A DNA stretch of 63,709 bases, counting the filler, from Collodictyon triciliatum (taxonomy: Eukaryota): assembly GCA_043381765.1 (NCBI GenBank). It is 10 parts of 10 records of this genome, joined end to end, with 100 filler letters (N's around TTAATTAATTAA, not from the genome) between each part and the next. Parts side by side here need not be neighbours in the genome. Positions count along the whole stretch, not along the records: positions 13,931 to 20,796 come from JBHJMP010004196.1; positions 20,897 to 27,752 come from JBHJMP010004199.1; positions 27,853 to 34,702 come from JBHJMP010004200.1; positions 34,803 to 41,652 come from JBHJMP010004201.1; positions 41,753 to 48,600 come from JBHJMP010004202.1; positions 48,701 to 55,546 come from JBHJMP010004203.1; 4 more parts are not named here. One strand, written 5' to 3'. Position 1 is the stretch's first letter, and every line of letters begins with the position of its first letter. The notes beneath the pieces were generated by a model, which saw nothing but the letters and a program-made list of their open reading frames with translations, made no database searches and was not told where the DNA came from. The position numbers and the translations under genes are program-made. Of this stretch, positions 6,966 to 51,451 are shown in pieces.

Positions 6966-7018
<53 letters not shown>

Positions 7019-15237: not shown

Positions 15238-18200
15238 TTATTGCGACATTGGATCAAACACATTTCTCTTTGTCAGATTTTTCATTTGAACCAACTTTTG
15301 TTTGATTTGGCCACCCCTTGTAAGAGGGATAATGAAAGCAACGAACATAAAGTATAATATCCATATGGAGTTCATTCCAATCAGCAAAGCAGCAATCCAA
15401 GACTGTGAGTCGAAAAGATTTGACATGAGTGTAAGGAAAAATGAAACAAAAATGATGTATAAACTGGACAGCTCCATTTGATTCTCGATTTTTGAGTTGT
15501 ATGGCCTGTATTCTTTCTGCATCCAAATTGAGCCCTGAAGTTCATTTTCCAATGATCAGATAGGTTGCCTATAGAGAACCACAATATGGTATGACATATT
15601 GATTATTTTCTAACCTGGATGACAACCACAAGAAGCGAAAATGAAACGGCTGGGTTTGTGTATGGAATGACACTGAGAATAAATGAAAAGGCAATGCGAC
15701 GAGCAATTATAACGAATTCCCAGTGCTTGAAGCTCTAATTGACACATATATGTTTAAATATTGCAAATTTTACTTATTGATATATGATACATAATAATTC
15801 GTTTATACCTCTTTATATGGCAGGTATAAGAAACCGTATCTCGCTCCAGGCTCGTAACCAGGTCTTTCAAACATAATTCTTACTTTCCACCAAAGAAATG
15901 CAGGCAGTCCAACCAGAAACAGAATAAAAACAGGAACAGCTATCGCAACGAGTTTTCGGTACTCACTAGATGCCGGGCTGCATTGAATCCAAGGATTGTG
16001 ATTGAGATACCATTTTTCCTCGCCATTGTCATACACTGTGCATCCAAACACACCAAAAACTTCCCTTGCCACAGAGTAGTAAATGAAAAATAAAAAATTC
16101 AAAGTGATGAACACCGCCTATTAAAATTAAAACATTTTTTTTAAAAAAAAAGATAATTAAAATATGATAGATATAATTCGAAAGCTTTAGATTTTATCAT
16201 TTCTCTAATAAATGCAAGATATGGTGTTGCCTTATTTTTCTTCTTTCCGTATCCGGTATAATATGTAATGGCGCCTATGATTATTAAAATCGGTATTCTT
16301 ATAAAACTGAATAAGAGGTAGTCGAATGTATTGTCTATCCCAAATATACAGGATAAGTTAGGAAACTGAAAAGAACTAAAGGAAGAGGAAAAATCAATAA
16401 ATTTGCTAGCATCCTCTGATTTTAAAAGCCCTGAAGAGATAATGGAAAGCGTTTGAAGGTGTAGCATCGTTATCCTTAGTTTTGCTGTATTACAATAATA
16501 ATAATGATGATAAAAAATAAAAAAAAAATAGGTAAGTAGTAATAGTAAAAATAATAATGCGTATGTAAGTAAATGAGTGATTTCTTGACTGCATGACTGT
16601 AAAAATTGTTCAAAATATACGTATATGTATTAAAGGAATCATTCATACCTGATTTTGATGTTTCTGAGAAATAGAGGTAAGTTGCAAAAACGCAAAGCCA
16701 AATTAAACCAAGTGTAAATGTTGAATAAATGCTTGATTTTTTACATTTCACGCATGATCTACCTTGATTGCCATACCCACTCTGGCATTTCGAACATGCA
16801 TGACCTTCGTATCCCTCTTGGCATAAGTTAGCTATTTCAACTGATATACTCGAATTTGATATTCTGTTTCCAATTAACTTATCACATGATTCAGGTCGAG
16901 GGCACGGGAGAATTGATTTCACTTCAATTACGTTTGGGGAAGCGTGGCAGTATTTCATCGTGACTCCATCTATGCATTCGCATTCTCTAGGGCATTGTAC
17001 GCAATTTTTTCCAAAACCAAAATAGCCAGGTAAACATTTACAAAATTCATGATTGTAATATTCTGGATTTAGACCTACATTTAAGTCGATAAGGCCTGAT
17101 TTTGAAACAATAGATGGGCATATAAAGAATTTTGTCTCATCTTGCAAACTGTATGGACTGCTGTAATTCAAGAAATCTGGAAGAAAATTTGATGCTCCAT
17201 GATTCATAAACGTGTCTATCAAACCTAAATATTCTAGCTTTGAAAAAAGTCTGTATGATTCCGGAATGTATCCGTATATTGGATTTCCGGACAGATCAAG
17301 TGAGCTCCACTTCAATAAATTGGTGAGTTCACCAAGTTTACTGATATTGTTATTATTTAAACGGAGTACCTTGATGTTAGTCATATAATTAAAAATTCTC
17401 CAATTTAATTCCCCATGGAGCTCATTATCATCGAGCAAAAGAATTTCATAATAATAGGCATCATCTTGGGAGCCAGGTGAAATGAAGGTACTAATGTCTC
17501 CAGAAAACAAGTTACTTCTCAAATCAATCGATACCAAGTTTTTTAATTTCCAAAAATTTGGGGGCATGCTCCCAGAAAACTTATTGTGAGATATGATCAG
17601 TGATTTTAGTAGTGACAGAGATTCAAAATAATTTGGAATTGATTCGTGAATTTGATTTCTGGATAAATCTATGTATTGAATTAAGGTAATATTCCAATCG
17701 TTAGGAATCGAACCATTAATTTGATTCTCACTAACATCTAATCTTGTGAGCTTTGGTAGATTAAAAGAGGGCAGTGTCCCGTTTAAAATATTTCTGTATG
17801 TAACTATTTCCTTTATATCTAAGCAACTTCCGAAGCTCGGAAGGTTTCCACCAATTTTATTGTCAGATATAGTAAAGATCTCTATGTTTGACAGCTTTGA
17901 AAAAATGGGGACTTCGCCTAATTTTTTAGAATTACTATTTAATATGCAATATTATTCCGTTATTGTATATTCAATATGGAAAAATTGTATATCAAACTTA
18001 CCCATCAAATTATTGTTATCTAATTGAATTCTTTTTACAATCGGGGTCTTATTGAAATCAGGAATAGTTCCTTTGATGAATGAAGATATTTAAAATTGTT
18101 ATTGGCTAACATATTTTTATATTTAATTTTTAATATTACTTTAATTAAAGCCGATTATTACCTTTTATAGTATAGGTGATATAAAATTGTGATTTTTTAA

Positions 18201-20680
18201 CTTTTTGTTATTTTCTTTAAAAAAATACGTGTTTGTCTCATGGTAGTTGAATATTACTTAAATTTTCCTTTTTGTTTTATTTTATTTCTTTCATGAAGTA
18301 AAAACACACCATTCAATTGGTTATTGAATAGTAAAATTAATTCAACGATTGGCACATATCTGAATGCCGGTATTGCTCCTGTATTACAATAAGTCGGAAT
18401 TTTTCTGTTTATTTTTCAAATAAATGTTTTCGATGGTTCTGTTTTACTTTGAAACGTATTATGCATAATAAAAAAAATTCAATCATAAAAGTACCGGATA
18501 ATTTGTTGCTGAACAACCTTATCTCTTTCACGGATGGGATGTGACTAAAATCCGGAACAGTTCCTATAAAAATTTAAAATATGAAAATAAAAGATAAAGG
18601 GATAAAAAAAAACTTACCATTTAATTGGTTACTAGAAAGACGAATTCTTTCGAGATAGGAAATATTCTGGAAATTTGGGATAGATCCTGCATTTGGGGTC
18701 ATTAGACTTTATTTTATCTTCCAATTGCAAATCTATGAATTGAATAAGAGAAATATATCTCTTTTAATTATGTTTTCATTTACTTGAATCATACCACTGA
18801 ATTGGTTGTCATATAGGTATACTCTCTCTACTCTATGGATTTTATTGAAGTCTGGTAGCTCACCTATTTTTAGATATCAGCATGGTACTTCATTAGAATT
18901 CAAATGAAAATAAATTACCGAAAAAATTGTTTCCTGACATCCTTATACGTCGTACAAAAGTAATATCACTAAAGTTTGGTATTGTTCCTAAATATTATTC
19001 ACTTTAATATACCATTAATATGAGTACATTCTCTTTTTATCGCGTTTCAATAAGGTACAAGGTATAATATTCGGTTCGACACTTAGATTACCTGTCACTC
19101 TGTTGCTGGTCAATCTAATCTCTTCAACTATTGGGATAAAACTGAAATTTGGTAATGTCCCTATAAAAAAATTAAATATTGAGAAACAAAATAGCACAAT
19201 TTACAAAATATAAAATCCAAGATTTTCAAAACTGTATAATTTGAATATGTGTGGGATCAAGGTCCAGTAACAATATCGGTAATTGAAACCACCATTCAGG
19301 TCATTATCATAGAAGGATATCACTTTCACTATCGGAATTCCACTAAAATTTGGAATATCTCCTATATTAATAATAAATTGAGATTATGTAACAGGTATTT
19401 ACTCATCAATATTTAAAGAAAAACCGTAAATTTCTCCGCTGTATATCAAAATGGTCTCGATATTGGGGATCCCGGAAAATTTTGGTATTGGTCCTGAATA
19501 TTTTAGTGAGAGTGATATTTTCAGTGATGCAATCATAAATTTTTCACTATGATGCATAAAAATGATTATTATTGGTTATCTTGAAGATTGAAACTTCAAT
19601 AATACAATCATAAATATTTAGAAAATTTAGAAAAACCTTTCATTTGGTCACTCAACCCAATCGATATACTTTTAATGAAGGAAATTCCAGAGAAATCTGG
19701 AATTGGACCCCCTAAATCGTTTCCATCAATTTTTATGACCAGAATATTAGGTATCCCTTGAAAATTTGGAATCGTTCCGATTAAGTTATTAAAAGACAAG
19801 TCTAGATTCAAAATCATCGGAAGATTAATGTTTTCAATCTTTCCGTGTAAAGAATTGTAGCTCAAATTCAAGGTGTGAATAAAAGGTAGCTTCTCTAAAA
19901 TTAAAAAAGCTGATAGAATATCCCCACGAACGCTGTTATCCGGGAGTGATATTTGATCGACGGGGCACATATTATTCTGCGTATAATGGTTAAAATTTTG
20001 AAAATTTATGTTTATCTTGATCTATCAAATATCACCTCGTAAAATTCATCGAAGCAATCGATATTGCAAGATATTCCAAACCATTCACAAATTGGAATGT
20101 TTTTGTCCTTCCATCCAGTATTACAATTCCAATTGTTTCCTCCAAGAACATCATAAAGCTGAACAAGGAGATGAAATTGATTATTCTCTACATCGTCACT
20201 GTCGATTCTCTCATCACAATTTCTCATCAAGCATGACATCTCCTTTTTGTTGGATCCCTGGAAAATTTTCTCTCCTGATGAGACAAAACTGCTCATATAG
20301 ATGTTGCCTCCATGAAAGAATTCACTGCTAGTGGGTTGGCTCAAGTCTGGTATACTCTTGTTTTCATTTAACGACTCAAAATTGAGCTTATCTTCGTCAA
20401 TCAAGACTGCTTTGCAAGTTTCATCATAATGGTCTAGCAATATCTGAAATGCATCCGGAAGTCTCATTGATAGAAAGTCATCTCTTGTGTACTGGCATCT
20501 AGTTGAGGTATATATCAATCAAATTATTTTTTCTTCCTTTTGGTTTCTGAAAGATGGTGGAGGTTTTAGTGATCAATCCCAAATCATGTAAAAAGGATAT
20601 CTGGTGGAATAAATATACCTATCACTTGAAATTGCAGATAAGGAAGGTGTCGTGGAAATGTATATTAGCATTAAAAGCAT
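15238..20680 (-). CDS. LRR receptor-like membrane protein: hydrophobic N-terminus, plant-type LRR N-cap, long LRR array, Cys-rich region, multi-pass TM domain, no kinase
   Basis: N-cap LYDVLGGNNW..GW..ICEWFGISC; many LxLxxNxxxGxIP repeats; CKCLPGYFG..CQEGYEGHACSKCQSGY; TM region with VFGC..YLNHNPWIQC, YGFLYLPYK..WEFVIIARR and RPYNSKIENQMEL. The ATG at 20680 is preceded by an in-frame AAT run, so the true start may lie off-contig. Confidence 0.85.
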
Positions 20681-20703
20681 CCATACTTTAGGTTTCCTAT
20701 CGA

Positions 20704-20704
<1 letters not shown>

Positions 20705-20796
<92 letters not shown>
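20705..20796 (+). repeat. (ATT)n microsatellite at contig end (similar AAT/ATT arrays at about 23061-23157, 38811-38902, 41481-41577, 59488-59547)
   Basis: Perfect trinucleotide arrays. Confidence 0.95.
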
Positions 20797-21290
20797 NNNN
20801 NNNNNNNNNNNNNNNNNNNNNNNNNNNNNNNNNNNNNNNNTTAATTAATTAANNNNNNNNNNNNNNNNNNNNNNNNNNNNNNNNNNNNNNNNNNNNCGAC
20901 GCATCGCTTTTTGTCTGAGTCGCGCAGCAAGAAACGCAAGGAAAGTGACCCGTTGTCCCCTCAAAAGACTCATCCTGTGGAATGAAATAGGATGTAAACC
21001 TTGTCTGAGATAGACGGTTGAAAGGATTCGTCGGAATCGATTTGAGAAGTAACTGCCATGTGCGTACTTTCATCGACCCGACAACTTTATCCGCTCTTCT
21101 GTCAGTCTCGAATACAACCGGAAATCGCGTTGGAGTTGATTCACCTCGGGTAGAATAGTCTGCGTGTGAGAACACTTTCTCTTCTTCCTTCCCTGTTTTT
21201 TTCTTTTTCTTTCCACCCAAAACACAAAAACTCCAACCGCACAATCCGAGGCTTCTGCCCTCTCGTCCACAGCTCATTTTTGTCCCATAG

Positions 21291-21360
21291 GCGAAGGCGG
21301 TTTCCTCGACTTTGTTTTCTCTCAATAAAGTGTTGAAAAGAAACCAAAAAAAAAAAAAAA
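21291..21360 (+). mobile_element. Tiny poly(A)-tailed insert, family C, copy 2
   Basis: GCGAAGGCGGTTTCCTCGACTTTGTTTTCTCTCAATAAAGTGTTGAAAAGAAACC(A)15 differs from copy 1 (on another contig) by two substitutions. No clear TSD is seen. Confidence 0.8.
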
Positions 21361-21769
21361 TTACGAGAACCTATGAATCCAAACAAGACGAGAGGAAGAG
21401 AAAGGATATTAAAACATCCGGAGCCAACAAGAGGAAAGGGCGTTTTTTCCAAGAAGTAAAGGGGTGCACATTCGACTTTGATGGCGATCCATTACTATAT
21501 GTATTGGACAAATTGCCAAGATATAATATTCGCAAGATTTTGGTTGCTGACTAATGAATGATGACTTATTGTGAACCTCATGACAAAGTGAAGTAAATGA
21601 ACAAGACATTCATGCCATAGTTTAATTACTTTGCAATTTTAATTTTCATAACTCTTGGTCACTCTCTTTAGTCTGAAATACTTTGTAGTTGCTCACTAGG
21701 GATTTATGAATATCGCTTCTGGCTTTATCTTGTGTGCACCATTCAAAACTTTCCTTTGTCGTGTGTGCA

Positions 21770-23060
21770 TCACTCTGGGGGAAGCACAAATGGTGTCGGA
21801 TAGCGAACATGGGCTGTTTTTGCGTAGGTGATGAACTGTGGGACGGGTTCACAGATAAAGAATTATTATTTTTGATAAGAAGCACAGCATTCCACTCGCG
21901 GTGGGATTCGTCGACAGTTAGGTATATTACCTGCTCGGGAATGTCAGACAAAGTTGTCGTCGTGAGGGCGACGCTGTCTCCCTTGGGGATATCCCGTAGA
22001 GACACAAACTATAAGTGAATTGATGAATCAATTTGCGTGCAACAAAATCCAAACAGAAGACAATCTATTTTGCCATCCCTATGGCAATACAGCAGGGTGA
22101 CTTTCAGGCTTGTACTTTAGATCATATCATATACCTTAACAATGTGCCGTTTGGCGACCTCTCCAGAGCTACTTCTGAGTAAGTGTTTGCTTTTGTCCAG
22201 AGCCTCGATACTACTAAAATCGGCAGGACCAACACTGTTTGATTGAAATTATCAGTGGGATTCGCCAAACATAAAGTCATCGTATGGTACGTACCCGGCG
22301 ATGATGATAGACATTGGCAAAGAGCTAGCCTCCACAATTAGATCAATGGTTTCGCGGTGGTCTATGGCACGCATATTAGTGCAATACAGCTTCCTCTTGA
22401 TGTGAATGGCAACTTTAAACGAATATATATCATATAGCTATTCTTGATGTTAAAAAGGAAAAAGAAAAAGAACCATTAAATGCTCCGTCGGTCAAAATCT
22501 TTTGAGTGCAGAGGCGCGCAGGGTGATATGGCAATGGAAAGGGTAACTTAGTACCAATCAGAAAACCATAACAACTTTGCCCAAACAAAGGTACTAAATT
22601 AATATCCCATTACAAACGATTACAATTAAATTAAAAAAATGTTATCGTACGAGCAGTATAAAGTATTTTCGACTGTCGTCTTTGGTTGATTCGCGTGCCA
22701 ATTTTATACAATGCTCGATGCTCTGAGAATTAACTTGGGTTATTAAAGTGTAGCAATGTATGTGGATGTGCAATAAAGAATTATTTTTTTTTTTTATTAT
22801 TCCCTTCTATTTGCGTAAGATGGGATCAAGCGTATGTACAATAGAATTTTGAGTGTGACGCATAAGTAATGTTGTTTCTTCTTTATCTTATAATCATTTT
22901 TTTTTTTTAAAAAAAAAATCTAGTATTTCTGGGTGCAACAAATTTAAAATGATCAAACCGGTCCATAGTTCGTTGGGGAAGAAAACGGGATTCTACGGAC
23001 TGCATCACGATAGACATCAAGGACTCCATTAATTCCAGAGACTTCGGTCTGTATTTGTTA

Positions 23061-23157
<97 letters not shown>

Positions 23158-34350: not shown

Positions 34351-34802
34351 CTGAGTAAACGTGTATAGAGGAGACATGTATCATTTAGTACAATATTTTA
34401 GTATTTCAGCATATGTCCGTGCATGTAATTAACGGATTGTAGTTTAATACAAGGGATGCTATTTGTAAAGCGCATTTAAAATTCGATCGTGTGTTTTCTT
34501 TTTCTTTTCTTTTTTTTCTTTTCTTTTTTTCTTTTCTTTTTTTCTTTTCTTTTTTTCTTTTCTTTTTTTCTTTTCTTTTTTTCTTTTCTTTTTTTCTTTT
34601 CTTTTTTTCTTTTCTTTTTTTCTTTTCTTTTTTCTTTTCTTTTTTTCTTTTCTTTTTTTCTTTTCTTTTTTCTTTTCTTTTTTTCTTTTCTTTTTTTCTT
34701 TTNNNNNNNNNNNNNNNNNNNNNNNNNNNNNNNNNNNNNNNNNNNNTTAATTAATTAANNNNNNNNNNNNNNNNNNNNNNNNNNNNNNNNNNNNNNNNNN
34801 NN

Positions 34803-37800
34803 ATTGGAATCGCCTGCGGATATTTGTGTTTTTCTCCTGTTTTGTCTCCCCAAGTTCCATATTCCAGGATATCTTCCTTCATCTCTGCCATTTCTTTCAA
34901 AGCAAAGAACGCCTGTTGTGAATCTCGTTGAGCAAGTTGCTTGAGTTTTTCAAAGTCCTCCGCATTTTTGTAACATTCTACAGTTTTTTCTGCATCTCTT
35001 TCAACGCCCCATCCGTTTTCATAGCACTCAGCGATTATCAGAACAGCCTCTGGATATTTGTATTTCTCGCCAATTTTTCTCCTGCGACTCATAACATTTT
35101 CTTTAATTTCAGCCATTTCTTTTAAAGCAATGAATGCTTCCTTGGAGCCCTTTTGTGCTAATTGCATCATTTTTCCAAAGCTCTCTGATTCTTTTAACCA
35201 TTTGACTGTTTCCTTGAGGTCTCTTTCAACACCCCATCCATTTTCATAACAGTTCGCAACAATTGGAATCGCCTGCGGATATTTGTGTTTTTCTCCTGTT
35301 TTGTCTCCCCAAGTTCCATATTCCAGGATATCTTCCTTCATCTCTGCCATTTCTTTCAAAGCAAAGAACGCCTGTTGTGAATAACGTTGAGCAAGTTGCT
35401 TGAGTTTTTCAAATTCTTGGGCACTTTTGTAATATTCTACAGTTTTTTCTGCATCTCTTTCAACACCCCATCCGTTTTCATAGCACTCAGCCACGATTAT
35501 AAGTACCAGAGGAAATTTGCGTCTTTCTCCTATTCTTCGGTCAGATTCGTCGAAAACATCTTCTTTAATTTCAGACATTTCTTTCAAGGCAATGAATGCT
35601 TCCTTGGAGCCCTTTTGTGAGATTTGCTGAAGTTTATAAACGTCTTCCGCTGCTTTAAATAAATCAATAGCTTTTGAGATATTCCTCTCGACACTCCATC
35701 CATTTTCATAGCACTCAGCTATGATTGAAACAGCTTGTGGATATTCATACTTTTCTCCAATTTTATCTCCCCATGTTTGATATTGCAAAATATTGAATGC
35801 ATCGAGGGAACCTTGTTGCACAAGGTGTCTCAACTCACCGAAATCTAATAATAGCTTCAAAGGGGCTACTGCTCTCCAGTAATTTGCTTTCTCGGTGTCT
35901 TTCTCTACATCCCATCCATTTTCATAACAGTCAGCCATCATCTGAGCTTGGAACTTTGTGTAATTTCCTTGTTCACAATACCTCACAAACTCTTCATCGA
36001 AGGAAGTAGCACCAATCGAAAACAAGAGTGATTTGTTGTTTTGACCCAAATTAGTGACATTCCTCATTTGAATGTCCCCACCCTCCAATTTTCGTGGTCG
36101 AATAGCTGGTATTGTCACCAAATCTATCGTTTCTTCGGCGCTGCTAGAATTTATTTCGCTACTACTTTTGAATGATGGTGTCTCATGTTCGCCGAAATTT
36201 ATCTTGGGACGGTATTTTACCTGGGTGTAAGGTACTTCTGATTCATGAGAGGAAATAATTTGGCTTCCTATTGATATATCCCATATAGATATTGCCTTAT
36301 CCCCACTTCCAGAGGCTAGCCAGGTTTCGCCGTTTGGTCCTTTGATACCGCAAACGCTGAAGACAGCTTCTGTATGACCACCAAATATTTGGACCTCATT
36401 TCCAGTTTCTGTATCCCAGACACGAATTGCTTTGTCTTCACTCCCAGAGGCTAGCCAGCTTTCTCCATTTGGCCCTTTGATACCACAAACACTGAAGACA
36501 GGATTTTCATGACCGCTCAAAATTCGTATCTGCTTTCCAGTGGACACGTCCCAGATGCGTATCGTTTTATCTTCACCTCCAGATGCAAGCCAGATTTCAC
36601 CATTTTTTCCTTGAATACTGCAAATGCTCAAGACACGTTCTGAATGACCTTCCAAAATCTTGACTTTTTGTCCATGGATAATGTCCCAAATGCATATTTC
36701 TCTGTAACTGCCGGAAGCCAGCCAATATTCACCATTAGGTCCTTTAATACTACAAATGCTGCTTACCCAATTGGTGTTGGTTTGCAGTCTTTTGATTTGG
36801 TTTCCAGTGACAATATCCCAAATACGTATAACATTATCTCTACTTCCAGATGCTAACCAATTTTCGCCGTTGGGTCCAAGAATACTACAAACACTGAGCA
36901 CAAGATCGGTGCTTGTATCCTCCAATATTTGGATTTGGTTCCCTGTCGTTCCATCCCAAACTCGAACTGTATTATCATAACTTCCAGATACTAACCATTT
37001 TTCACAATTAGGCGCTTGAATGCTGCAAACACTTGATACTTCATTTGTGTGACCCTTCAATATTTTGACTAAGCCTCCTGTGTTTACATTCCATATAATG
37101 ATTGTGTCATCATAACTGCCAGAAACTAACCAAATTTCTCCGTTTGACCCTGCTGCAGAACATAAAGCACTGACTGATTTTTTGTGAAATTCTAATTTAT
37201 TGTGAGAAATTCCGAATTTAGAATTTTTCATGTTCGTATCACAAAAACTGCAGTCTCCAAGTATTGAATTTGTGAAATTAACGCCAGTCAAATCAGCACC
37301 AGTGAAGTTTGCACCGTCAATTATCGAACAGCTGAGGTTCGCATTTGGAATTTTAATATTTGATAAATCTGTTCCACCAAAGGAAACATTCATGAAATTC
37401 AGGAAGGTAATTGCATCAGATGCAGCCTTTGATTTGGTCTCGTCAGTTCTTGACATGTGTATAATTCGGAATAAGGACGATATTACCCGTTCGCGATTCC
37501 ATTCCTTATCAATTTCTGTATCACCTGATACTTCAATAATAAAATCCTTGACTTTTGTAAACTCAGCGGGTTCTTTATATATTCCAATTTCTTTTGCATG
37601 GAAGGATAAGTATTTGCACGAATTCAAAGTCTTTGTGTGAAACCAACCGATGTTGTCCGCGAACTTGTCCCTCATTATTGACCAGAATTCAATAGCTTCA
37701 TTGTGCTGCTTCAGTTCCCTGTAATTTTTGTCTACATTCTCGCAAGCCACCCAGCAATTCCAGTTGTCATAGGAGTCATGTTCTCCATACCTTATGGCAG

Positions 37801-38809
37801 CTGATTTATGAAGTGTTGTAACGATGTTTAATTCCGCGCTCACTCCTGATGATTTGGCTATTCTTTGACATTGCGAACCGTCTTTCAGAGACATCATAGT
37901 GCATGTTTCACCTCTGATAAGTATAGCTTTCCTGAGGTAATCAACAACTTGGTCAAATCTAAGTAAACGAAATGGGGGTTAGCAGACATAATTTCACAAT
38001 AACTAAATTAAATAATTTAAAATAAACTTTCATGCACAATTTTTTCTTTTATTCGACTCAAGGAATTTTTATACACAATTAGAATATAAACCTCTCGAGC
38101 TCAAAGTTAGTTCTTCCTACATTTTCGAGGGAAGTTGCATAATCTGAATTCATTTCCCCCAAAGTTCTCTTACGGATTTCAAGAGTCTTCGAGTAAGCTT
38201 CCAATGCACTTTTATGACTGTAAAGGATATAATTAGTATTTATTTAAGTATATAATGAATTTTCATATGTTGTTGTTACTCTTTCATCTCATGATAGATG
38301 TCTCCGATTGATTCAAAGCAAGTGACAACGTTCGGATGATTTTCACCGAGAGCGAAAATGAATATATCTAGGGATTTCTGCAACGAAGATAAAGCCTCTG
38401 TTTTCCTATTTGAAAAGAATTCCATCACAATTCACAAATTAAACCAAATTATATTTTATATTAGATTGTGTTCAAATCACCTAGCACTTTCGACATATAC
38501 TTTTGCCATGAATTGAATTGCCGACGCAACAGATGAATGGGTAGATCCTAGCGATTTTTCAAGAATTCCCTTTGCTTTTTCATAAATTTCAATGGATTCT
38601 TCATACCTTATATTAAAATAAAAGTTTAGTGATGTTTACATGAATATTAATTTATATGCATATTACAGTGACAATTAAGTACCTTTTATCCAATAAAAAT
38701 AAGTGTCCATAATTTTGATAAGATATTGCAATGAGGGGATGCTCATTTCCAACTTTCTTTTGGCGTATTACAAAGGATTTTTTGTATTCATCCAAGGCCA
38801 TCCCAATTC

Positions 38810-38903
<94 letters not shown>

Positions 38904-41480
38904 TGCAATAATTGTAATAATTGTAATAATAGTAATAGTAATAGTAATAATGATACGTTTTCGGATTCATTTTACTGCGATATTTTCTAGAGAAAATTGA
39001 ATAGAATTATATATACTTTGCCTCCATCGCATAAACATCTCCAAAGCGGTCATAGCACTGAGCCACTTGCAAATCATACTCGCCAAATTTTTTAATTCTC
39101 AAAAACAAAGATTTTTTGTATTCTTCAAGAGCCTCTTCCATTCTGAATTTTTATAATACCAACATTAATTATGTTCCATTAAATGCTCAAATAAATGATG
39201 AACTAACTTATTCTGTCTCTGGTAGATAATGCCCATTTCTTCATGAATTGCAGATAAACTTGTAAAATCTTCATTTTTCTCGATAGAATCAATACATTTT
39301 TTGTAGAAAACTATGGATTCCGACCAACTATAATTATACAATTTACACTTAAAAATGAATATCGAAATTATTAACCCCGTACTTTCCTTCATAATATATT
39401 GTTATTACTTTTGGAGATTTTTGTAAACACGACCGACATTCAGATAGTCACCAGCCTTGGTTTCTGTTGTATTAATAATTTTATTAGTAAAAATAGAAAT
39501 TACTACTAATTAATAAAATACATCATGCATACCTTCTGATTGATGTTTTCTGAGGCGCACATTAAGAACAGACAACAGGAATGTATTCTCAAATGATTCC
39601 AAGAAATAATCAACGAGTAGTTCTCCCACTTCATCCAGGGTCTTTCATAATTATATATAATTAAATAAAATTTAAGAATGAATAATGATATGATTATTAT
39701 AAAAAACCAAAATACCTTGGCCATAGCTCCATATATATCTTTTCAATTTGCAACTCCACTTGAATTTATCTCTCTCCAGCATGTGAAGAACTCATGGCGA
39801 TAGCGGCCACTCAGAAGAATTTTTGTAACCTTCAGAACAAATATTTAAATGAAATTTCACAAGTAGTTATCATAAGATCAAATGTAAGAGAAAAATTACG
39901 TGTTTTTGTTTCAAGTATTCGACCAGCAATTCAAAAGATTTTCCTCTTAGAAGTTGGTAACATATTTCTGCCATAAGCTCCTCATCGATATCGATAGCTT
40001 CAGAGTATCGACCAAACAGCCATTTTCCATACTGCTCATGAATTTGTGTCGTTTCTTGCAACCCAAAGAAGAAAACATTTTCGATAGTCTCTGAAAGCAG
40101 CTGATGGAAATACATATACCTAGAAATTTTAATGTTAATATATTTCCCATCGTGCACAATCACATAGCATTTTTAGCATTAAAAATAATTATTTTTAGAC
40201 TAACCTTCCATTACGAACGAAGAGAGAATCAATTAGAGTAAAAAAGAACGATTTCCTAAATAAATTCACCATTAATAAAAAAAAAAAAGTATTGGTACAA
40301 TTATAAGAGTTTTTAATTGGTTCTAATTAAGAACCATTCCGCAAGCTCGAATCCAATTCCAATCGTGTCTTTCATGTAATCATCCAAATCTCCTTCACTT
40401 AGTCCAATACGAGAGACAAAAAGAACTTTCATTGAGGTGGCAACATACTGAATACCTGATGTTCACCATGTAAGAAATTTTTTGAAAAATCAAAAAAATT
40501 AAATTCAATATGATTCAAAATAGTATACCTTTCTTGTCTAGCTTCAGTTGCCAGCGTTGAATAATCAGAGTGTAAAGCTCAATTACACCTTTTGTAGAAA
40601 GCAATGTGTCCAATTCATCATCGAGTTTCTCATAAATTCCAAAAACTCTAATTTCATCTAGAACTATACGGAGATAGAGCGGGTGGCCTATTTGAATAAT
40701 AAATTAGTATAATTCATAAAAAAAAAATCGAATTCATCTTGAATTCACAGTTTTTTTGAAAATTTATATAACCAGTGTCCTCCAAATCTTCCAGGATCAT
40801 TCCAACTTGCTTCTCGCTCAAAGTTTTATCATAGCGAGCCAGGAATGAGTCAGCTCCATTTTTAACTTCATCCTTTGTCAACTTGGTGACAGAAATGGGC
40901 TCCAAACCATTTTGCTCCGCATACTTTTTCAATTTTTGAGTTTTTAGGGACCACATTTAATTTATTAAAGAAATTTAAAAGATTATTACATAGAATAAAC
41001 ACCTTGCATGATTCATGGGTATGAATTGTTGACACAACCAAGGAAACACTAGATGGTGTTTCTTTGGGTAGCCAAGTCAGCAAATGGGGGGCTGGCGTTG
41101 CTTTCGTGGGATGTACTTGATTGATTGCGTCGATGATGAAGACAAACTTCTCTTCTCTTTAAAAACATAATATTTGTGTTCAATGTTTGACTAAAATAAA
41201 TCAGGTATGTCATAATATAAACTTAATTTTTACTTTTTAGTCTCTTGAATCATCTTAAACAGACCCTGAATCCCTTCTTCTTCAAATTCTATCACAAAAT
41301 GTAAATAATCAGCTTTATTGGATTGTCTATAAAACCAAGAAATATACTGAATTTTAATCATTAATTTAGTTACCAGTGTCTTCGTGCTTCTTTTGGGCGC
41401 TGAAATTGGGCAAGTTTGTGACCAGAGTCCAAAAGCGAGCAGAAATACTAAAACAAAATAGGAGTGAGGCAAAATACCAA

Positions 41481-41577
<97 letters not shown>

Positions 41578-41652
41578 GTTGTTCTTATCTTGGAAATTTA
41601 TATTGACCTTTCCACATAATTGCTGAAATTAGTACATCCAACAAAATGAAAA
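34803..41652 (-). CDS. Large STAND/NACHT (NPHP3/TEP1-type) - TPR - pentapeptide repeat - WD40 - SEL1-like repeat protein; both ends truncated
   Basis: Exons give FHFVGCT, FVFIIDAINQV..LTWLPK..LVVST and GHPLYLRIVLDEIRVFG (NPHP3-type NACHT), then six TPR exons. These splice in frame at 37959 into the 1048-aa ORF, which has AASDAITFLN..DLSNIKIPNANLS pentapeptides, seven WLASGSxDxxIRIWD WD40 repeats and five AxCYENGWxVExD units. Confidence 0.85.
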
Positions 41653-41752
41653 NNNNNNNNNNNNNNNNNNNNNNNNNNNNNNNNNNNNNNNNNNNNTTAA
41701 TTAATTAANNNNNNNNNNNNNNNNNNNNNNNNNNNNNNNNNNNNNNNNNNNN

Positions 41753-43402
41753 TTCGATTTGCTATTCCTTTGAGACTCCAGGGAGCAGCACTAGTTATTT
41801 GAGCCACTCTTCTGCAGATTGCGAGTCTTTTCCGTCCCCTTCTCAAAGTCCCGCGTTTCACCCTGGTTCACCAGACACTTCTAGTTCTGTTGACCATCCT
41901 CGGAGACTTTCGAAACGCGGTGCACCCGAGCAGAAAAAAGGTGAAGCGCCCGAGCTAACTTGCAGGCTAGATCCGCTGGAAGGATCGTACCCCACCTCAG
42001 ACGAAGAGTTTGAACCGCGCAGGAAAAACTCAAAGACTGACCCGATGATTGACTGGGTCATGTGTGATTTTTGCTATAAGTGGAGAAAGCTTCCAAGTTC
42101 TGTTCCTAAATCCTCTATTCCAGACGAGGTAGGAATTACATACTATACTGTTTTTTTCCCTTGCTTCTTTCCCTAACATTTAACTATTCTGTGACGATAC
42201 ATTGTGTTCCATCGAAGACAAGACCCTTTTTTAAAATGCCTGCGAGTTGAAAGTATACATTTTTGTTTTCATCTTATCTCCTTTCATCTTCCATATCTAT
42301 TTGGTCTCTACATTTTCCTTAATATTTTATGTCTCATTGTAGTCGTTTGTTGTGATATTAATGCATCCTTCTCCCTTTACAGTGGACATGCAGTATGTTT
42401 CCCGTCAAGGAACTCGCAGTATGCTCGTTTCGCAATCCTCCCAGGGTAACGGCGTCTATATCCACACCAATACCGCCTAAAAAGAGTGAGTCCATATTCC
42501 ACCAGCTAAATCTCTGTCTCTTGTCCCTGAATCACCTCTATCTTACTGCAACGTCTTCAAAAGCATCGCCTCATTTTCATGCCATACTATCATAGAGATA
42601 AATAGTATCCGATATACTACCTTCTCGACGGATCAGCATTTCTTAATGTTTTAGGCATTGATATTAATTTATCAAAATACAGACACGAGCCAATTTAACT
42701 CGAATCGTCACCAAAGAGAACTTTGTCCTGCTGCACCCAAACCAGTCTCCATATCCCCACCGAAATCAATACTCCGGGGGAAGTCCGTCAAGGAAACACC
42801 CGATGCAATCCAAATTATTCTGAACTACGCGCACGAGCTGGCCACAGACTTACTGGGTCCCTATCAAATAAGAGGGAATCTCCGTCGCCGCACACCTGTG
42901 TGCCCCTCTGCTAGTACCGGAGTTTCTCTTGGCCCAGAAGAAGAGTTCGATCGACTAATACAAGAACAAATAGCTATACACGACTTTGGGTATTTAATAA
43001 CCATCCAAACTTTAATATCACATGCTTAATCTATCTGCATATTTCTATTCGTATTTTATATTTGACCACTTCAGAAACTTTCACATACGGAAGAAAGTAT
43101 TCACTTTGAATTGTATCGTATTACCTTCTTCTCTGATCCAAACTCTCTCCTCCTCGTCCAGATCCACAATGAGAGACCTTTTGACACTTCAGCTTCTGCC
43201 TGAAGAGGCCGACTCAAACACCAAAATATCGAACCACTGGTCTTCAGGGACGCCGTCCAACCCTGGCCCTGTAAGACACGAGACAAGACGGTTCGTCAAG
43301 CTCGTGCTGCAGTGTCTCCACGAATTACCAGAATGCAGACCAACCAGCCAAGAGATACTGACATTCACCAAGGAGTTCAACAGCGAGGATTTAGATGAAT
43401 AG
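41753..43402 (+). CDS. CW-type zinc finger protein (5' end probably truncated)
   Basis: DWVMCDFCYKWRKLP..IPDE splices to WTCSMFP..CS, a zf-CW signature. Further exons lie at about 42681-42988 and 43075-43402. Confidence 0.8.
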
Positions 43403-44663
43403 CTAGCTTCTTTCCTCTATCAATACTATGCACATTCTTTTCTTTTACTTCTTTTGCTACCTATCGAAACATGCCCTACTGGGATGGCCTCGCCACCTGT
43501 TTCTCCCTTTGCCCTTCTCATTCTCTCTTCGTCCTGCTCCATCTTCATTTTCGTATTATTCGCTCGCTCGCTCGCTCAAACAAACTGGCTGGGCTCATTC
43601 GCTCACCTCACCTCACCTCACCACACCATTCCCTGTCTTCCGTCACTCCAGCCTTCACAACACCCCGATTTGTACAGAGACCCCTCACGCACCAAGAGAC
43701 ACAGCCAACCAGCCAGCCAGATGATTCGCCCGCAACTCACAAGGCAGAGCTCCCTCGACTCTGAACGCACAACCAGCCACATAGGCTCGTTCTGCGCATA
43801 ACGCAAGCCGACGAGTCCCTTCGACTACCCATTGGCTCACAGTGATGTCTGATGCGCGTGGATTAGCCGCTGCCCTCAATCTTCCAGTCCCCGCAGCGCC
43901 CGTCATCCTTCCCCTGCACAAGAAGGAAAGAAGGAAGTCTTGAAAAGAAATAGACACAAAGGCTCCATCAGACTCTCTTGCCTCGCTGCCTGGCGCGTTT
44001 GTGTCTTTCGCGCTGGTTGGCAAATACTTCACCTCACACACTCTTTCCCTTGACAGAAACCATGAAACAAACATGAAGCAAACAAACATACACACATACT
44101 CCGTAAGTCTTCTTCCAACCACGCCCCACCGCTGCCTCTTCTCTCCCCCAAACACAAATAAAGATGTATCAACGCCACCATCAATCACAATCACACGAGC
44201 GATGATTTGGGTTGGGTTGTCCCTGAATCACTCGCCGTGCGAAGCAATCGTTCCCAATCTCCATACCCGATGAGGAAATAGATGGCACATATTTGTCATT
44301 TTTCTTTTCTTTTTCTGGTGAGCGACGCTTTGGGATGAAACAACGCCCGTGCCCGTTTGCCGCGGACTCTGTCGATCAGAGGTTGATGGCAAGGAAGCCC
44401 GGCGGGTGGCTCATAGAGCAAATCATTGAAATGAACGGCCGCTTGGTTCTTGTGTAGGATTGAGTGCGAGGAATCTGGACGAAGACATCGTTTCTTTGGT
44501 GCTTTGTCTGTTATCCGTTTCTTATGTTTTGGTTTCCTGAAGCAAACCATAAATCGCTCATTCTTCGTTTGAGCTGCAAAGTCAATAGAGAATACTGTGT
44601 GCTTTGTATCGCACTGCTTTGAAAGTTTCCCTTATTCTTTTTATTTTTTTTTTCTCTGGCAGG

Positions 44664-47600
44664 ATGATTCCTAGTCGCGTGGCAAAGAGCTTTGTTGGCG
44701 CTTCTGTCGCCGCTGTCGTTGTCGTGTTTGGAGTCGCTTTGGTTTGCGGCCTTCCTATGGAGTCCATGATCAAGGTATTCACTTTCCCTGTTCTTTATGT
44801 TCTCGAGTTTTTTTTTTTTGGCCCAGGGGCGCACATATCCGTTTGCTCTTTACTCTCCTAAAAGTTTTGACCGCACAAACCCTTTCGCTATTCTTATCTT
44901 GTAGGAAGGAAACGGCCTCAAACCCGATTATTTGGACATTATCTTCAAGCAGCGCTTGGACAAGTAAAATACATTTAAAAATAATGTTGCTGCAACAATT
45001 CTCAAAGATATATATATATACCAACATGAGTTATATTCCTTGCTTTTCAAATCGCTTGTTTCAAATTCAAAGATTCTGTTTTATTCTTTTTCTCTTTTCC
45101 TTTTTTTTCTCTTTTTATTCAAATATTTTCGAATAACTCTATTAGAAATGGTGACCTCAAACTGGATGTTGATGAACTGGTACAGTTTGTCACGTGAGCT
45201 TCTCCTTGAACCATCTGAAATATATAAAAAGATCATAATTTCATAACCAGCAAAAATTTTCTTCCATAAAAGACATATTATCGCAATCAAGCAGAGATCA
45301 TTCCACCTTCATATGGACACTTAGCTAACGATTTGTACATATATTATGCGTTCAGCGAGGCTGAAGACCACCCAGTGAGCCCTCTCCAAGTCTACACAAT
45401 CATCGCCACCTTGGACTCAAACAACAATGGTTTCATTGATTACAGCGAATTCCGTGAAAAATACGCCCGCCTGCAACCAAAGGATGAAGCTCTTGTATTC
45501 TTCCATGCGAACAAAAATATACATAAGAAGGATAATACCCCATTAATGATATCAATCTTGATTTTCTCCATTCATTTCCAGCACTATATAAGTCACTCAA
45601 CTTTTCCCTCATCTCGTTCATGAAGTTGAATGTGTAATCTATTAATTGAATAAAGGAAAAAAAATTTGAATGCGTTATTCTTCGATGCTATAGGCTGTTC
45701 CGGAACAAGTGCATCTTTCACTCACAACCGATCCTAGTCGCGTATGGGTCATGTGGGTGACTTTCGGTACGTTTGATTATGGATTTCGCTCGATAAACAT
45801 ATGGAAAAGAGTTTTAACCCAGTTCAATGCTTTATTCTGTTTAAATTTAACTTCAGATTAATGACACATTTTCACACAATCAGAGTCCACTCCACTGAAT
45901 GCAGTACGCTTCGGAACAGAGTCAGGTCGCTTAGGCTCAATCGCCTACGGAAATGAAACCACATACAATGTGGGCGAAAGAGGTTTTCATTTTTATTCAC
46001 GCTCATCTTAGTCTTTCAATCCATCTATCAAGCGAATTTCTTATATATGTGGACATACCTTAATTTTTTTTAAGCTAAGCTAGTCTTTTCAATCGATTAT
46101 TGAGGCCCATATTATTTTACACCAATCGTGATGCGTAGGATGGTTTGGATTTATCCATGAAGTCTTGCTGACTGATTTGAGGCCATTCACCACCTACTAT
46201 TACCAAGTCGGCGACGGTCGCCTCTGGGTTTTGTTTAATATGATGTTATTAATTTTTGTGTTGTTTTATGAGTTACAGCGTACCTCACTTTTGCTTGAAA
46301 TGACCTGACTATGAAGACTGAATTATATATTTATTTCGAAAATAACATTATTTTGACCACTTTACATGCCTAAGTGAAACTAATCAATATCAGGGAAAGC
46401 AATACAGTTTCCACACGGCACCATCACGAGATGCGCCAGCGCCAAACGGAATACGCTATTGCACATATGGTATCACTTCATGAAATTTACACTTTAGTTT
46501 AACTAACGTTTGATTCGTTCCCTCACTCTTCTCTTTCACCCACTAGGTGACATGGGGACTTTCATGCCTGTATATTTTTATTATCATACTTGTGTCTCTT
46601 TTACGTTTGTTTATGCTGAGTCAATTAAATAATATACGCCCCTTTATTCAATTTTTGCTATCAATATTCGACACATAGTTCGGATTCATGGTTACTGAGG
46701 TAATAATCATCTCCCATTTACCTTTTATTGGGGTTCCCGATTATTATTTTCATTATTTTTTTGCGCATATATAGTTTCTGAACTATGTACATCAATATAA
46801 TATTCTCTAAATTATCAGGGGATTGTGAAGGTGCACCAGGCAAATCCTTATGACATGTTGCTTCATCTCGGCGACATTGCGTGTACGGACTATCATTGAT
46901 ACAATATTGCCTTTTCATATGCTCTTCACCTTTTGCATATCAGCCAACGTGATGGGGTGTAATAGTACCTTTTATAATTATCGCGCCAAGATTTGATCAA
47001 AAAAGACGGTTCGACGTTTGGTGAATGCTATCTGAATTAAAATATTAAAAGAGTGATTATGCATACCTTCATTTTAGATGCTGGAACATCATCCACTCGT
47101 GAGTGGGAGATTGTCTGGGACATATTCGGGCGCCAAGTTGAACCACTGGCTGCGAGTATGCCTTACATGACAACCGTCAGTATTTTATTTGAGCCATTTG
47201 ATTGGTTTTAATGTAATAAACTTAACCGATTCCATATGTAAATATGCTAATAAAAAATATGAATTCTGTATCACTTACTCAAAACAGGTTGGAAACCATG
47301 AAAAGGTCAGGAAGCAATTATTGTGAATACCTCCTTTAAGAATATCTCTTTTAGAATTGAAACTCAATTAATAACTCTTAAGTATGACCAGAAATATTCC
47401 TTTCCGAATCACGCATCCTTCATTTAGTACTACAACTACACCGCATATCGTACCCGTTTCCGTATGCCTGGGGAAGAAAGCCGAGGCCACGACGATTTCT
47501 TCTTCAGTTTTGATTATGGAGGTAAACAAAAGAAACGAATATAAAACTACACTCCGTACATCAATCTTTGGTATCAAGACACATTCATAATCCACGATAG

Positions 47601-48458
47601 ATCAACTCGGTCATTCTCTCCAATACTTACACGTTTCATGCTGCTGTTCACCATTAGCTGTTCACTTTGCGTCGATTGCCACCGATTCATATCCCCCAAA
47701 CTACCCACCTGACCAGCGTCTACCTGGGTCTGAACAATACAATTGGCTTGAGCAGGTATTCTAGATTATCAGAAAAGTTTAAACAAAGAAAACGTTTGGA
47801 ATTGAACGAAAAATCCATCTATCTGCACTGCGACTTATCCATAATATATTTATGCACTGTGTTCTTTATGACTTCATGGATTCTAGGACTTGATCAAAGC
47901 TGTGGCCAACCGCGATAAAGTTCCGTGGATTATTGTAGCCGGGCATCGCCCGATGTATGGTGAGTAAAAAAATAAAAATAAAAATAAAAATTGATGTATG
48001 ATTTCTATGCGTGATTAACAATCACTTCATCAGCTTTATTGCTGGGTATAGGAGCCACGAAGAAATATCTCTCTCTTAGTTTTTTTTTTAAAAAAAACTA
48101 CAATATCGGTTATTATCAAATTAAGGGCTCCTAATATATTCATTTTTCACTTACGAAGGTTCCTCCGAGAATGGAAACTGGGAAGACCTCCGCATGGGTT
48201 TTCTTTATATATATCCCACAGTTTTTTCTTTTAAATATTGACGTCGCATTACGAACCTTAATCAATTTTTTTTTTTTTAATGTTTTGCAAAATATTATCT
48301 CTCCAACTCTCTGTATTGCCTATTAAATGCTCTCCACGTACTATGTTAAGGAATGGAGCCCCTCCTCAAAAAATACGACGTTGACATGTATCTGTCCGGT
48401 CACATGCATATTTACGAGCGTGTTCACCCCATCTACGATTATGTCCATGAAATGGAAG
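44664..48458 (+). CDS. Purple acid phosphatase with signal/anchor peptide and two N-terminal EF-hands (3' end truncated)
   Basis: EF loops DKNGDLKLDVDEL and DSNNNGFIDYSEF; FN3-like region PEQVHLS..IHEVLLTDLRPFTTYYYQVG; metal motifs GDMG, GDIAY, GNHE, GHRPMY and GHMHIYER. Confidence 0.9.
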
Positions 48459-48469
48459 GTTTGGTCATA

Positions 48470-48571
48470 AAACAAACAAACAAACAAACAAACAAACAAA
48501 CAAACAAACAAACAAACAAACAAACAAACAAACAAACAAACAAACAAACAAACAAACAAACAAACAAACAA
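48470..48571 (+). repeat. (AAAC)n microsatellite near contig end
   Basis: Perfect tetramer array. Confidence 0.95.
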
Positions 48572-48700
48572 CCAACCAACCAATAAACAACCAATAAACA
48601 NNNNNNNNNNNNNNNNNNNNNNNNNNNNNNNNNNNNNNNNNNNNTTAATTAATTAANNNNNNNNNNNNNNNNNNNNNNNNNNNNNNNNNNNNNNNNNNNN

Positions 48701-51451
48701 TAATCCACGACGTTGACAGTCGGGGCATTCAAATTGATATGCTTCCACAAAATTTGGTCGAATCGATGATATTTGTTTGATGAAGGTGCAAAGAATGTCA
48801 AAAATTCTGACGAATCTATCACCTTCATGAACGTTATTTTCGTATTTTCTAATCTTGACTGAAATGCTCTTCTGGTGGATTTGATACAAAATAATCAAAC
48901 CGTCTCCAGGAAGTAGTTGAATTTCATCCGTTCCTGTTTTGTAGTAAGCATTCAGGTGTATGAACGCCACATCTCTGAAAAACTGGTCGTCATACTGAAC
49001 TCCAGCTTGTGCCCCTTTTGTCAAACGAAGCGCTTGTATGACGACGTTGCTTTTGTCAGAGAGCTGGACTTCACCATTGGTAATTATTTCTACAGAGGTC
49101 TCAGCGATGCAGTTTGACTCTGGTTTTTCATTCCATAACGCTTTGAGGTTTTGGCATTCTTCCATCAGTGAGGGGAAAGCGATACATTCTCTATTGAATT
49201 GGATCCCAAGGCCGAAATGGTCAAAGATTCGAAGAATTGTATTGAATACCTCTTCATCTATTTCTGTATTCAGTTCTTGTTTGATTTGGTCTTTTAGCTT
49301 GCTCAATAAAATGATGCCACTTGTGTCCTTCCCGATGCCTTTGAAGCTGAAGACACAGCGGAAAATGTTGATGAGAAATAGCGGGTCTAAAAATATAATG
49401 TCTTTGATATATTCAAGTGATGAATACCAAACGAGAGAGCCAAGGTCGTGGAGGAATTTGAGAGCACTTTCGCACTCATTTCTGTCCATACCCAGCTTCT
49501 TCTCGGCAAAATCGTAAGTGTCTTGGATTCGTTCGTACTTTGATATTTGGCTTTTCGAATTCAGATAGTCTTTCAGTCCGATATATGTTTTTGGAATGTC
49601 CTTGTTCATGCTATCAAGCGTCATCATTCCTTTGTATATTTCATCCTTCAAAGCTGAAATGTTTGTTCCACTCTTGTTGCTTACTTTCAACTCTGTACTG
49701 ATGAAGATGTGGCGAGCCTTTTCATCCGGTTTCTGCTCATTTTCTTTTTTGATTCGTTCGAATTCTTTTTGCATCTCCTGACCACAAGTTCGATTTTCGC
49801 AATCTTGATGAGTCCCAGCGATAATAATTTTTGAGCCAGGTGCAAAGTCATCAAGCATTTTGACCCAGCGGCTGAGATTATTCTTCTCCTTGTCTTGGTC
49901 GAGTCTGTAAAGGATTAAAACGAGGGCGCCTGATGACAAAAAGAACGGGTGTGTCACTTGGAACTCCTCTTGTCCTCCAAAGTCCCAGATTCGTACAGAT
50001 AGCTTTGTCTTGAATAATCCACCCATCATCGACTCATCGATATCGACATGAGCAATACCATCAGTTCGCTTTCTCTCTTGATCTGTCTCATCATGAAATA
50101 ATCTGGATTTTTGTGTAATTGATTTGATGAGTGTTGTTTTTCCTGCCTCTCCCTCACCCAATAGCAGGAGTCTTCCTTGGGTCCATTTTACAACACCCTT
50201 CACGGAGTTTGATAGGAAATCAAAGACTGCCTCAGACCCATTTCTGATGACGTTCTCTGGGATATTTTTGATGGGATTTCCCTGGATATTCAGTCCCCAA
50301 CGCAATTTTTTCAACGTCCCCATAATTGAAGGGATTTTTTCAATCTAAGTGTTTTTTTGCTGAGTGTTTTTTTTGTGTGATTTGTCCATATAAATTATCG
50401 AAGAAATAAATGGAGAATGTAAATAGAAAAGTGTTTGACCTTGTTGTTGGATACGTCCAGTTTTTGAAGATTTGCAAGGTTTGCTATGGCATCTGGGATG
50501 TGTGAAATCTGGATTCGTATTGGTGACAATTCATGTAAGTCTCGACCTTGTCGCTTTTTTACAACACTTTTAAAAAATAGTTGGAATGCTATATTTTCTA
50601 TTCGAAGAATATTGAAAAACCTGGTTGTTTGATATGCTGAGACCCATAACAAGGGGTAATTTACAGATCAATTCGGGAAATTGATGGAACTTTTTTTTTT
50701 AAAAAAAAATATGTAAACAATCAGAATAGTGAGACTGATATGACATTCAATGAATTAGCTGTTGAAAAGTGATTATAATAATGTTAATTCAATAGACCTT
50801 GTTGTAATCGATTCTGATTAGCGTAACTCCTCCCAAACGAGATATCTCGGAGGGCAATGACGATAATTGATTGCGGCATAAAAAAAATTGATTAAGTCTT
50901 GTCAAACACGATATTCCATGGGGGATGGATGAAAGGTTATTTTGGAGAATATTAAACTCTGTCAAGCCGGTCAAATATGAAAGCTCTGGAGGCAAATTGG
51001 TGAGCTTATTTTCTGAAGCACAAAGGTATGTCAAGCCAACCAGGCAAGATATTTCTGGAGGCAGGGATTTTAGGTGATTGTTACGAATACCGAACCATTT
51101 TAGAGCCTTTAGCCTAGATATCTGAGGCGGTAGATTCGACAATTGATTGTGTTGAATACTGAGAAATGTCAGATCTGTCAAGTATGATATTTCTGGTGGA
51201 AGAGAGGTAAGCTTGTTTTTCGAGACACTGAGCCACCGGAGACGAAGTAAGTCTGATATTTCTGGAGGCAGAGACAATAGGCCACCATCGAAAAAGTCCA
51301 AATGCAACAAACAAGAGAGGGATAATACTCCTTTAGGAACAATAGAACCTGTTTGGCCGCTCAGATCAAGAAATGTGCGGTTTCGAAGAACTGAAACATG
51401 TGAGTCCCCAGTAATCTTTCGGAGATCTTCTAAATACTGGTTAACGGTCAT
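48701..51451 (-). CDS. Roco protein (LRR-Roc-COR), 3' end truncated
   Basis: Exons are 50798-51451 (LPPEISxLxxL 23-aa LRRs), 50621-50689, 50440-50508 and 48701-50344. Roc motifs are GEGEAGKTT, RTDGI, WDFGGQEEFQVTHPFF, GTHQD and VSNK. COR motifs are IPKTY..LKFLHDLGSL..IFLDP. Confidence 0.93.

Follow-up and report, generated by a model that had tools for sequence, protein, structure and literature searches.

Three genes of the freshwater diphyllatean protist Collodictyon triciliatum, all in a 63,709-base stretch of genome assembly GCA_043381765.1 (hereafter the window), encode part of their repeat arrays in symmetric exons of exactly one repeat each: nine exons of 69 nucleotides (nt) in a leucine-rich repeat (LRR) receptor-like gene, five of 126 nt in a NACHT gene with tetratricopeptide repeats (TPRs), and two of 69 nt in a Roco gene. 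We consider it likely that these are ordinary spliced genes, whose single-repeat exons are an old, stable trace of array growth rather than a sign of active receptor diversification. The window comprises ten contigs of ~6.85 kb each, the last being 1.1 kb, joined by artificial N44-TTAATTAATTAA-N44 spacers, and the three genes all lie on the minus strand, on contig 3 (13931-20796; LRR receptor-like gene), contig 6 (34803-41652; NACHT-TPR gene) and contig 8 (48701-55546; Roco gene). An earlier note on this DNA had reported the same exons, and our analysis confirms them, with one addition: a 120-nt exon at 39327-39208. Its gene classes are also supported, the Roco gene by its Roc, COR-A and LRR matches and the NACHT-TPR gene by co-linearity with proteins of Diphylleia rotans. 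The note had further proposed large gene families and an exon-cassette recognition system, which fared differently and are taken up below.

The nine single-LRR exons form a block at 18002-19493, delimited by hidden Markov model (HMM) matches and splice sites (exons 1-5 at 19493-19425, 19361-19293, 19160-19092, 18987-18919 and 18863-18795; exons 6-9 at 18686-18618, 18563-18495, 18378-18310 and 18070-18002), with intervening introns of 63, 132, 104, 55, 108, 54, 116 and 239 nt. Each exon encodes one 23-residue plant-like LRR, G-x-[IL]-P-x-F...I-x-L-x-x-N-x-L-x, and the introns of the block all split a Gly codon after its first base. An upstream multi-LRR exon (19637-19979; HMM hits, donor GT at 19636, tblastn) likewise stops one base into a Gly codon. 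In the NACHT-TPR gene, the five single-TPR exons span 38092-39142 (39142-39017, 38808-38683, 38606-38481, 38405-38280 and 38217-38092; Pfam TPR_12, splice sites and TRF) and are separated by introns of 208, 76, 75 and 62 nt, each of which interrupts a codon behind its second base; (TAA)n makes up most of the 208-nt intron according to TRF. Each of these exons matches Pfam TPR_12 (E 1.3e-3 to 9.3e-7, individually below the gathering score), and one also has a weak TPR_NPHP3 match. The two single-LRR exons of the Roco gene lie at 50689-50621 and 50508-50440, with their three flanking introns in one register: between codons, after the N-x of the LRR.

All 18 introns flanking the repeat exons start with GT, end with AG and contain an in-frame stop, and each gene keeps a single intron phase throughout its repeat exons. 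Since the chance of finding AG and GT at a boundary pair is ~0.002 (the product of dinucleotide frequencies), the bounding of nine LRR units in one register is not a chance pattern. GC content is ~35% in the exons and 19-22% in the introns. Furthermore, transcript-derived D. rotans proteins align with the LRR and NACHT genes exon by exon, skipping the introns. Short contigs from freshwater and lake metagenomes (three studies) match parts of the LRR gene, exon-intron stretches included, with zero to one differences; these pieces cover little sequence, and all three of the differences observed are intronic. One X1 metagenome contig contained a joint from 18599 to 19605, which was not counted because only 22 letters lay on one side. 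Exonisation is partial in every gene: multi-repeat exons are present in all three alongside the single-repeat ones.

The repeat exons are anciently diverged, with synonymous sites saturated and third codon positions near random. Nucleotide identity is 43-65% among the nine LRR exons (mean 52%; 34% at third codon positions) and 38-52% among the TPR exons, for which third positions are 32% identical versus a random expectation of 27%. The introns of the repeat blocks are unrelated, with no shared match longer than 15 nt. Within the genes, there are no near-identical exons or flanks that would point to recent recombination (maximum identity 65% for LRR and 52% for TPR exons). The recently duplicated repeats of the NACHT gene are instead intronless arrays. 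Its WD40 repeats (36265-37074; 135-nt period) are 70-74% identical in nucleotide sequence between adjacent copies, far more alike than the exonised TPR units, and the intronless last exon holds two copies of a 277-nt Sel1-like segment that are 90% identical, with a spacing of 459 nt (34803-35538). Column variability among the nine LRRs of the one gene, which does not amount to a test of selection, shows no enrichment at the beta-strand x positions.

One HMM per exon type was scanned over all six frames of the whole window. The LRR model recovered its nine training exons with E values of 7e-11 to 1.6e-13, as expected by construction, followed by two neighboring units in the upstream exon (19778-19713, E 3.3e-7; 19709-19659, E 4.2e-5). 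These are the last two units of that exon and belong to the same subtype as the single exons, while the later LRRs of the gene reached only E ≥ 1.4. That the nine exons form one subtype fits local amplification. Apart from the coding exons and the two neighboring units, matches in the window had E values of 1.4 or above for LRR and 0.31 or above for TPR, and the scan yielded no relic or intact repeat exons in introns or on the reverse strand.

Comparison with D. rotans indicates that the TPR array has been stable. The NACHT gene and the D. rotans protein P0080 each have six TPR units, which pair along the diagonal, clearly so for four of the six (diagonal scores 67, 81, 88 and 115). The score of 67 belongs to the 120-nt exon (39208-39327), which has no TPR match of its own in Pfam and corresponds in position to the first TPR unit (42 residues) of P0080. 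Conserved exon order in a relative was an observation that the earlier note had itself set against its proposal, and the TPR units show it relative to P0080 in both number and order. In the LRR gene, residues 166-280 of the D. rotans protein P0205 align with the upstream exon and residues 532-554 with the last single exon (tblastn), and HMM matches in P0205 lie 23 residues apart from residue 233 onward.

The D. rotans transcriptome also offers a view of isoforms. Internal insertions or deletions of multiples of 23 or 42 residues occurred in 0 of 22 comparisons of Trinity isoforms (six NACHT-TPR and five LRR-receptor genes), though this evidence is weak, coming from assembled transcripts of another organism that are members of 90%-identity clusters only. 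The isoforms differed by truncation at the termini and, in one case, by a 5-residue gap. In D. rotans, each of the two families comprises several genes, with NACHT-TPR proteins in 9 of 20 looked-up clusters and LRR-receptor proteins from five Trinity genes, which lends partial support to the earlier suggestion of large families.

The most probable account of these observations is that an ancient series of tandem duplications, each copying one exon together with one intron, generated part of every repeat array. Each unit has the same codon phase at both ends and a length divisible by three, so that every such duplication would have preserved the reading frame. The copies would then have diverged and become fixed parts of their proteins: a plant-type LRR ectodomain with a multi-pass membrane tail, an NPHP3-like NACHT-TPR-WD40 STAND NTPase, and an LRR-Roc-COR GTPase. 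We infer this duplication mechanism, as well as a sensor role for the proteins; the exon structure, the age of the copies, the absence of relic exons and the TPR co-linearity with a homologue are direct observations.

Several points weigh against such a history of early growth followed by stability. For two of the six TPR units the pairing is ambiguous (62 versus 60; 48 versus 53), and the D. rotans proteins may be orthologues or paralogues. The stretch between the two LRR anchors holds 11 units in P0205 versus eight single exons here, counts that rest on tblastn coordinates and 23-residue-spaced HMM matches rather than on a unit-by-unit score matrix; on these counts, the exonised block has changed by three units since the gene diverged from P0205. 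This change fits whole-exon gain or loss, the usual evolutionary model, and shows no ongoing diversification mechanism. The two upstream LRRs of the same subtype have no intron between them, which would need intron loss or a more complex history. Finally, constitutive splicing of these genes is a prediction made from genome sequence.

Alternatively, the genes could belong to an active system resembling that of the brown alga Ectocarpus, in which symmetric exons are alternatively spliced, or recombined within or between paralogues, and thereby diversify the binding surfaces of large families. Equal-length symmetric exons would permit in-frame skipping and shuffling, the same three protein classes show this architecture in brown algae, for which splice variants have been described, and the multi-gene families of D. 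rotans and the three-unit LRR difference inside the exonised block would both be in keeping with such a system. However, the intronic, inactivated or reverse-strand repeat exons that are an Ectocarpus hallmark were not found in the window, exons and introns within a gene are anciently diverged, and TPR number and order are conserved relative to P0080. The D. rotans isoforms likewise lack repeat-sized internal differences, and the recent duplicates in the NACHT gene are the intronless WD40 and Sel1 arrays. We therefore regard an active system as unlikely. The cassette system proposed in the earlier note, whether active or simply undescribed, is not supported by the tests run on the window and on the D. 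rotans homologues: the exons are saturated, the introns unrelated and relics absent, the TPR order is conserved, and no isoform comparison shows a repeat-sized change. A bolder version, in which a predator of the CRuMs lineage independently evolved the brown-algal toolkit, with LRR-receptor, Roco and STAND-TPR families made from symmetric single-repeat exons that tune recognition through cassette splicing or by being gained and lost as units, would make the three-unit LRR difference a trace of that process; this we find rather improbable.

A different origin for the same exons would be parallel intron gain, that is, independent insertions at a recurring proto-splice site (e.g. the Gly codon after N-x-L-x) into an intronless array. 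The introns are indeed unrelated in sequence and range from 54 to 239 nt in length, no introns interrupt the corresponding sites of the large exons that flank the blocks, and a split Gly codon also bounds the type I LRR exons of brown algae as described in the literature, so it could be a favored insertion site. Yet old duplicated introns would have lost their similarity too, and the intronless large exons are just as well explained by introns having been lost in the 3' direction. Parallel gain would moreover require 10, 5 and 3 independent insertions at exactly one codon position and phase, and the exonised LRRs form a sequence subtype of their own, as expected for copies of one module. This origin is thus very improbable, and in-phase duplication of an exon-intron module remains the explanation we favor.

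The LRR receptor-like gene as a whole extends over 15241-20518 (open reading frames [ORFs]; Pfam LRR_1, LRR_4 and LRR_8) and is co-linear in tblastn with residues 96-1308 of P0205, sharing with it the LRRs, a Cys-rich region and several hydrophobic C-terminal segments. Its layout comprises an N-terminal cap, ~24 LRRs, the Cys-rich region and a multi-pass hydrophobic C-terminus, and its 5' end is probably missing from the contig, on the far side of the terminal (ATT)n tract. Downstream of the nine-exon block, a large exon at 16479-17917 (acceptor AG at 17919-17918; Pfam, tblastn) encodes ~10 LRRs, the Cys-rich region and the first hydrophobic segment; its 3' limit, 16479, is the end of the open frame rather than a fixed donor. 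P0205 (1,309 residues) is the best match of the gene (42% identity, E 2.7e-134), followed by four more D. rotans proteins interleaved with metagenome proteins, with plant receptor-like proteins and kinases prominent further down. A search of the ESM Atlas with the LRR exon returned generic LRR clusters only, with scores below 0.9, and a metagenome scan with an alignment of LRR-receptor homologues gave no confirmed locus. The 239-nt intron (18071-18309) contains an LRR-tail-like stretch, L-x-N-N-N-F, just before its acceptor; it has no HMM score and may be a chance occurrence.

The contig 6 gene (34805-41292) is predicted to encode an NPHP3-like NACHT-TPR-WD40 STAND protein because it is co-linear in tblastn with residues 725-2615 of P0080; with its Pfam matches, the full series of domains reads NACHT-TPR-pentapeptide-WD40-Sel1. 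The gene is open at both contig ends. A Walker-B-like exon of the NTPase domain (41003-41155) aligns with P0080 residues 746-794 and matches profile positions 81-128 of Pfam NACHT below the cut-off (E 0.0078; 16.5 bits versus 26.7 bits). No canonical Walker A was seen by reading contig 6, including the stretch upstream of the Walker-B exon (41232-41652), where the gene leaves the contig past an (AAT)n tract. That tract, (AAT)36 at 41481-41588, lies in the open frame or in an intron, a short distance from the contig end. At the other end, a 3' exon of 3.2 kb without introns (34805-37958; the start is placed by an AG at 37960-37959 and the reading frame) holds all of the pentapeptide repeats, ~7 WD40 repeats (135 nt) and Sel1-like repeats (~228 nt), as judged by Pfam and repeat identities. 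The Sel1-like copy at 34803 touches the contig end, which could reflect either a recent tandem duplication or an assembly break inside the repeat. Fungal NLR-like proteins have internally conserved WD40 arrays, of which the WD40 repeats of this gene are reminiscent.

Relatives of the NACHT gene were sought with a 53-residue exon (40527-40685) from the helical region after the NTPase core, searched against 1.84 billion representatives; 112 proteins reached E ≤ 1e-3, with identities of up to 79%. The 20 clusters looked up divide into the nine D. rotans transcriptome proteins (EukProt) already mentioned and 11 genomic or metagenomic ORFs. Seven relatives that were scanned carry DUF4062, NACHT/NPHP3_N/nSTAND1 and TPR_12, and P0080 (2,619 residues) has WD40 as well. 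NACHT was found in six of the seven, above the cut-off in three; in P0080 it was not among the 25 best of 52 families.

The contig 8 gene (48701-51451; open at the contig start, with a putative first ATG at 51451) is a Roco gene with the order LRR-Roc-COR. Pfam matches to Roc (6.4e-20, 72 bits), COR-A (1.7e-12, 47.9 bits) and LRR_8 (4e-19, 68.6 bits) are all above the cut-offs, and 76 homologues carry PF08477/PF16095. About nine of its LRRs lie within one exon. A search with the Roc-COR part among proteins of near length returned distant relatives only, at up to 28% identity over most of the query, and one 34% match that covers 27% of it; the matches are mostly from bacteria, archaea or metagenome contigs. 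A metagenome scan with the Roc-COR exon gave no confirmed locus.

The closest known systems are those of brown algae, and the parallel with Ectocarpus drawn in the earlier note proved accurate. In brown algae, the LRR exons of ROCO genes measure 72 bp, with 23 residues encoded by nucleotides 3-71, the TPR exons of NB-ARC-TPR genes code for 42 residues, and the boundary of type I LRR exons falls at a split Gly codon (PMC3341825, PMC11378527). Recombined paralogues are reported (PMC3341825, PMC11378527), as is alternative splicing that gives different repeat combinations (PMC11378527), and the hallmark in Ectocarpus is the presence of inactivated or intact extra repeat exons in introns, also on the non-coding strand (PMC3341825). 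The genes described here resemble these in having one repeat per exon, equal exon lengths and symmetric phase, in the 42-residue TPR exons of the NACHT gene, in the LRR-Roc-COR order of the Roco gene, and in the LRR receptor-like exons that, like the type I exons, start at the split Gly of G-x-x-P. They differ in that the LRR exons are 69 rather than 72 nt long, the Roco introns leave codons intact and interrupt the LRR two residues earlier, the STAND domain resembles NACHT/NPHP3 rather than NB-ARC, and only part of each array is exonised. Unlike in Ectocarpus, there are no intronic or reverse-strand relic exons in the window and no sign of recent recombination. Since register and phase differ from those of the brown-algal exons, the single-repeat exons of the Roco gene probably arose independently. 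The lineage is also another one, a CRuMs-like protist rather than a stramenopile.

Other repeat families provide looser parallels. Exonic modularity of LRR domains is described for human NLRs and other families (PMC6642158) and, as cited in PMC11378527, LRR exons are present in gonadotropin receptors; such in-phase exons are read as products of exon duplication and a precondition for alternative splicing (PMC6642158, PMC11378527). The genes here share with these the encoding of LRRs in in-phase exons of similar size, while the proteins are unrelated, the exon sizes differ, and the splicing evidence belongs to those systems. Within our limited literature search, we found no prior description of single-repeat-exon architecture in diphyllateans. 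The closest relatives of the NACHT gene carry the domains of nephrocystin-3-like STAND proteins (DUF4062-NACHT/NPHP3_N-TPR_12), to which the NACHT gene and P0080 add WD40, and the NACHT gene also pentapeptide and Sel1-like repeats; unlike in those proteins, its N-terminal P-loop part is not on the contig. Single-LRR exons are also a feature of plant ERECTA-type LRR receptor genes. The LRR gene resembles these in its plant-type repeats with G-x-I-P, but it has no kinase domain and differs in its multi-pass membrane tail and 23-residue units.

The remainder of the window adds some context. GC content per contig is 33-41% for the nine full-length contigs and 44% for the short tenth, and the best protein matches of genes on contigs 2, 3 and 6 are all from D. 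rotans, as would be expected of a diphyllatean (CRuMs) source. On contig 2, this match (48% identity) is the sole strong one of a TPT-family ORF (sugar-phosphate/nucleotide-sugar transporter-like). Microsatellites or homopolymers, including (TAT)n, AAG-rich repeats and poly-T, stand at several contig ends (e.g. 20704-20796, 34600-34702, 6966-6990 and 62470-62490), and the assembly seems to break at simple repeats, often cutting genes there. Contig 2 also contains a 404-base N run at 11560-11963, distinct from the 44-N spacers, which is either a scaffold gap or a masked stretch. Contig 9 carries an uninterrupted 394-residue ORF with Arrestin_N and Arrestin_C domains (55891-57072, minus strand) in a region that is locally GC-richer (~49%) than the LRR and TPR genes. 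Contig 10 opens with a perfect inverted repeat, its 89-nt arms (62591-62679 and 62752-62840) separated by 72 nt, which may be a palindrome of natural origin or else a chimera from amplification or assembly.

If an active system did exist here, exon-cassette diversification of receptors would have arisen a second time, independently, and in a eukaryote lineage that branches deeply. On present evidence, the three genes provide a clean example of LRR, TPR and Roco arrays growing by duplication of in-phase exon-intron modules. They also illustrate that exon symmetry alone is no evidence of ongoing shuffling, the recently changing repeats of the NACHT gene being intronless, and that duplicated exon-intron modules can remain fixed for very long periods.

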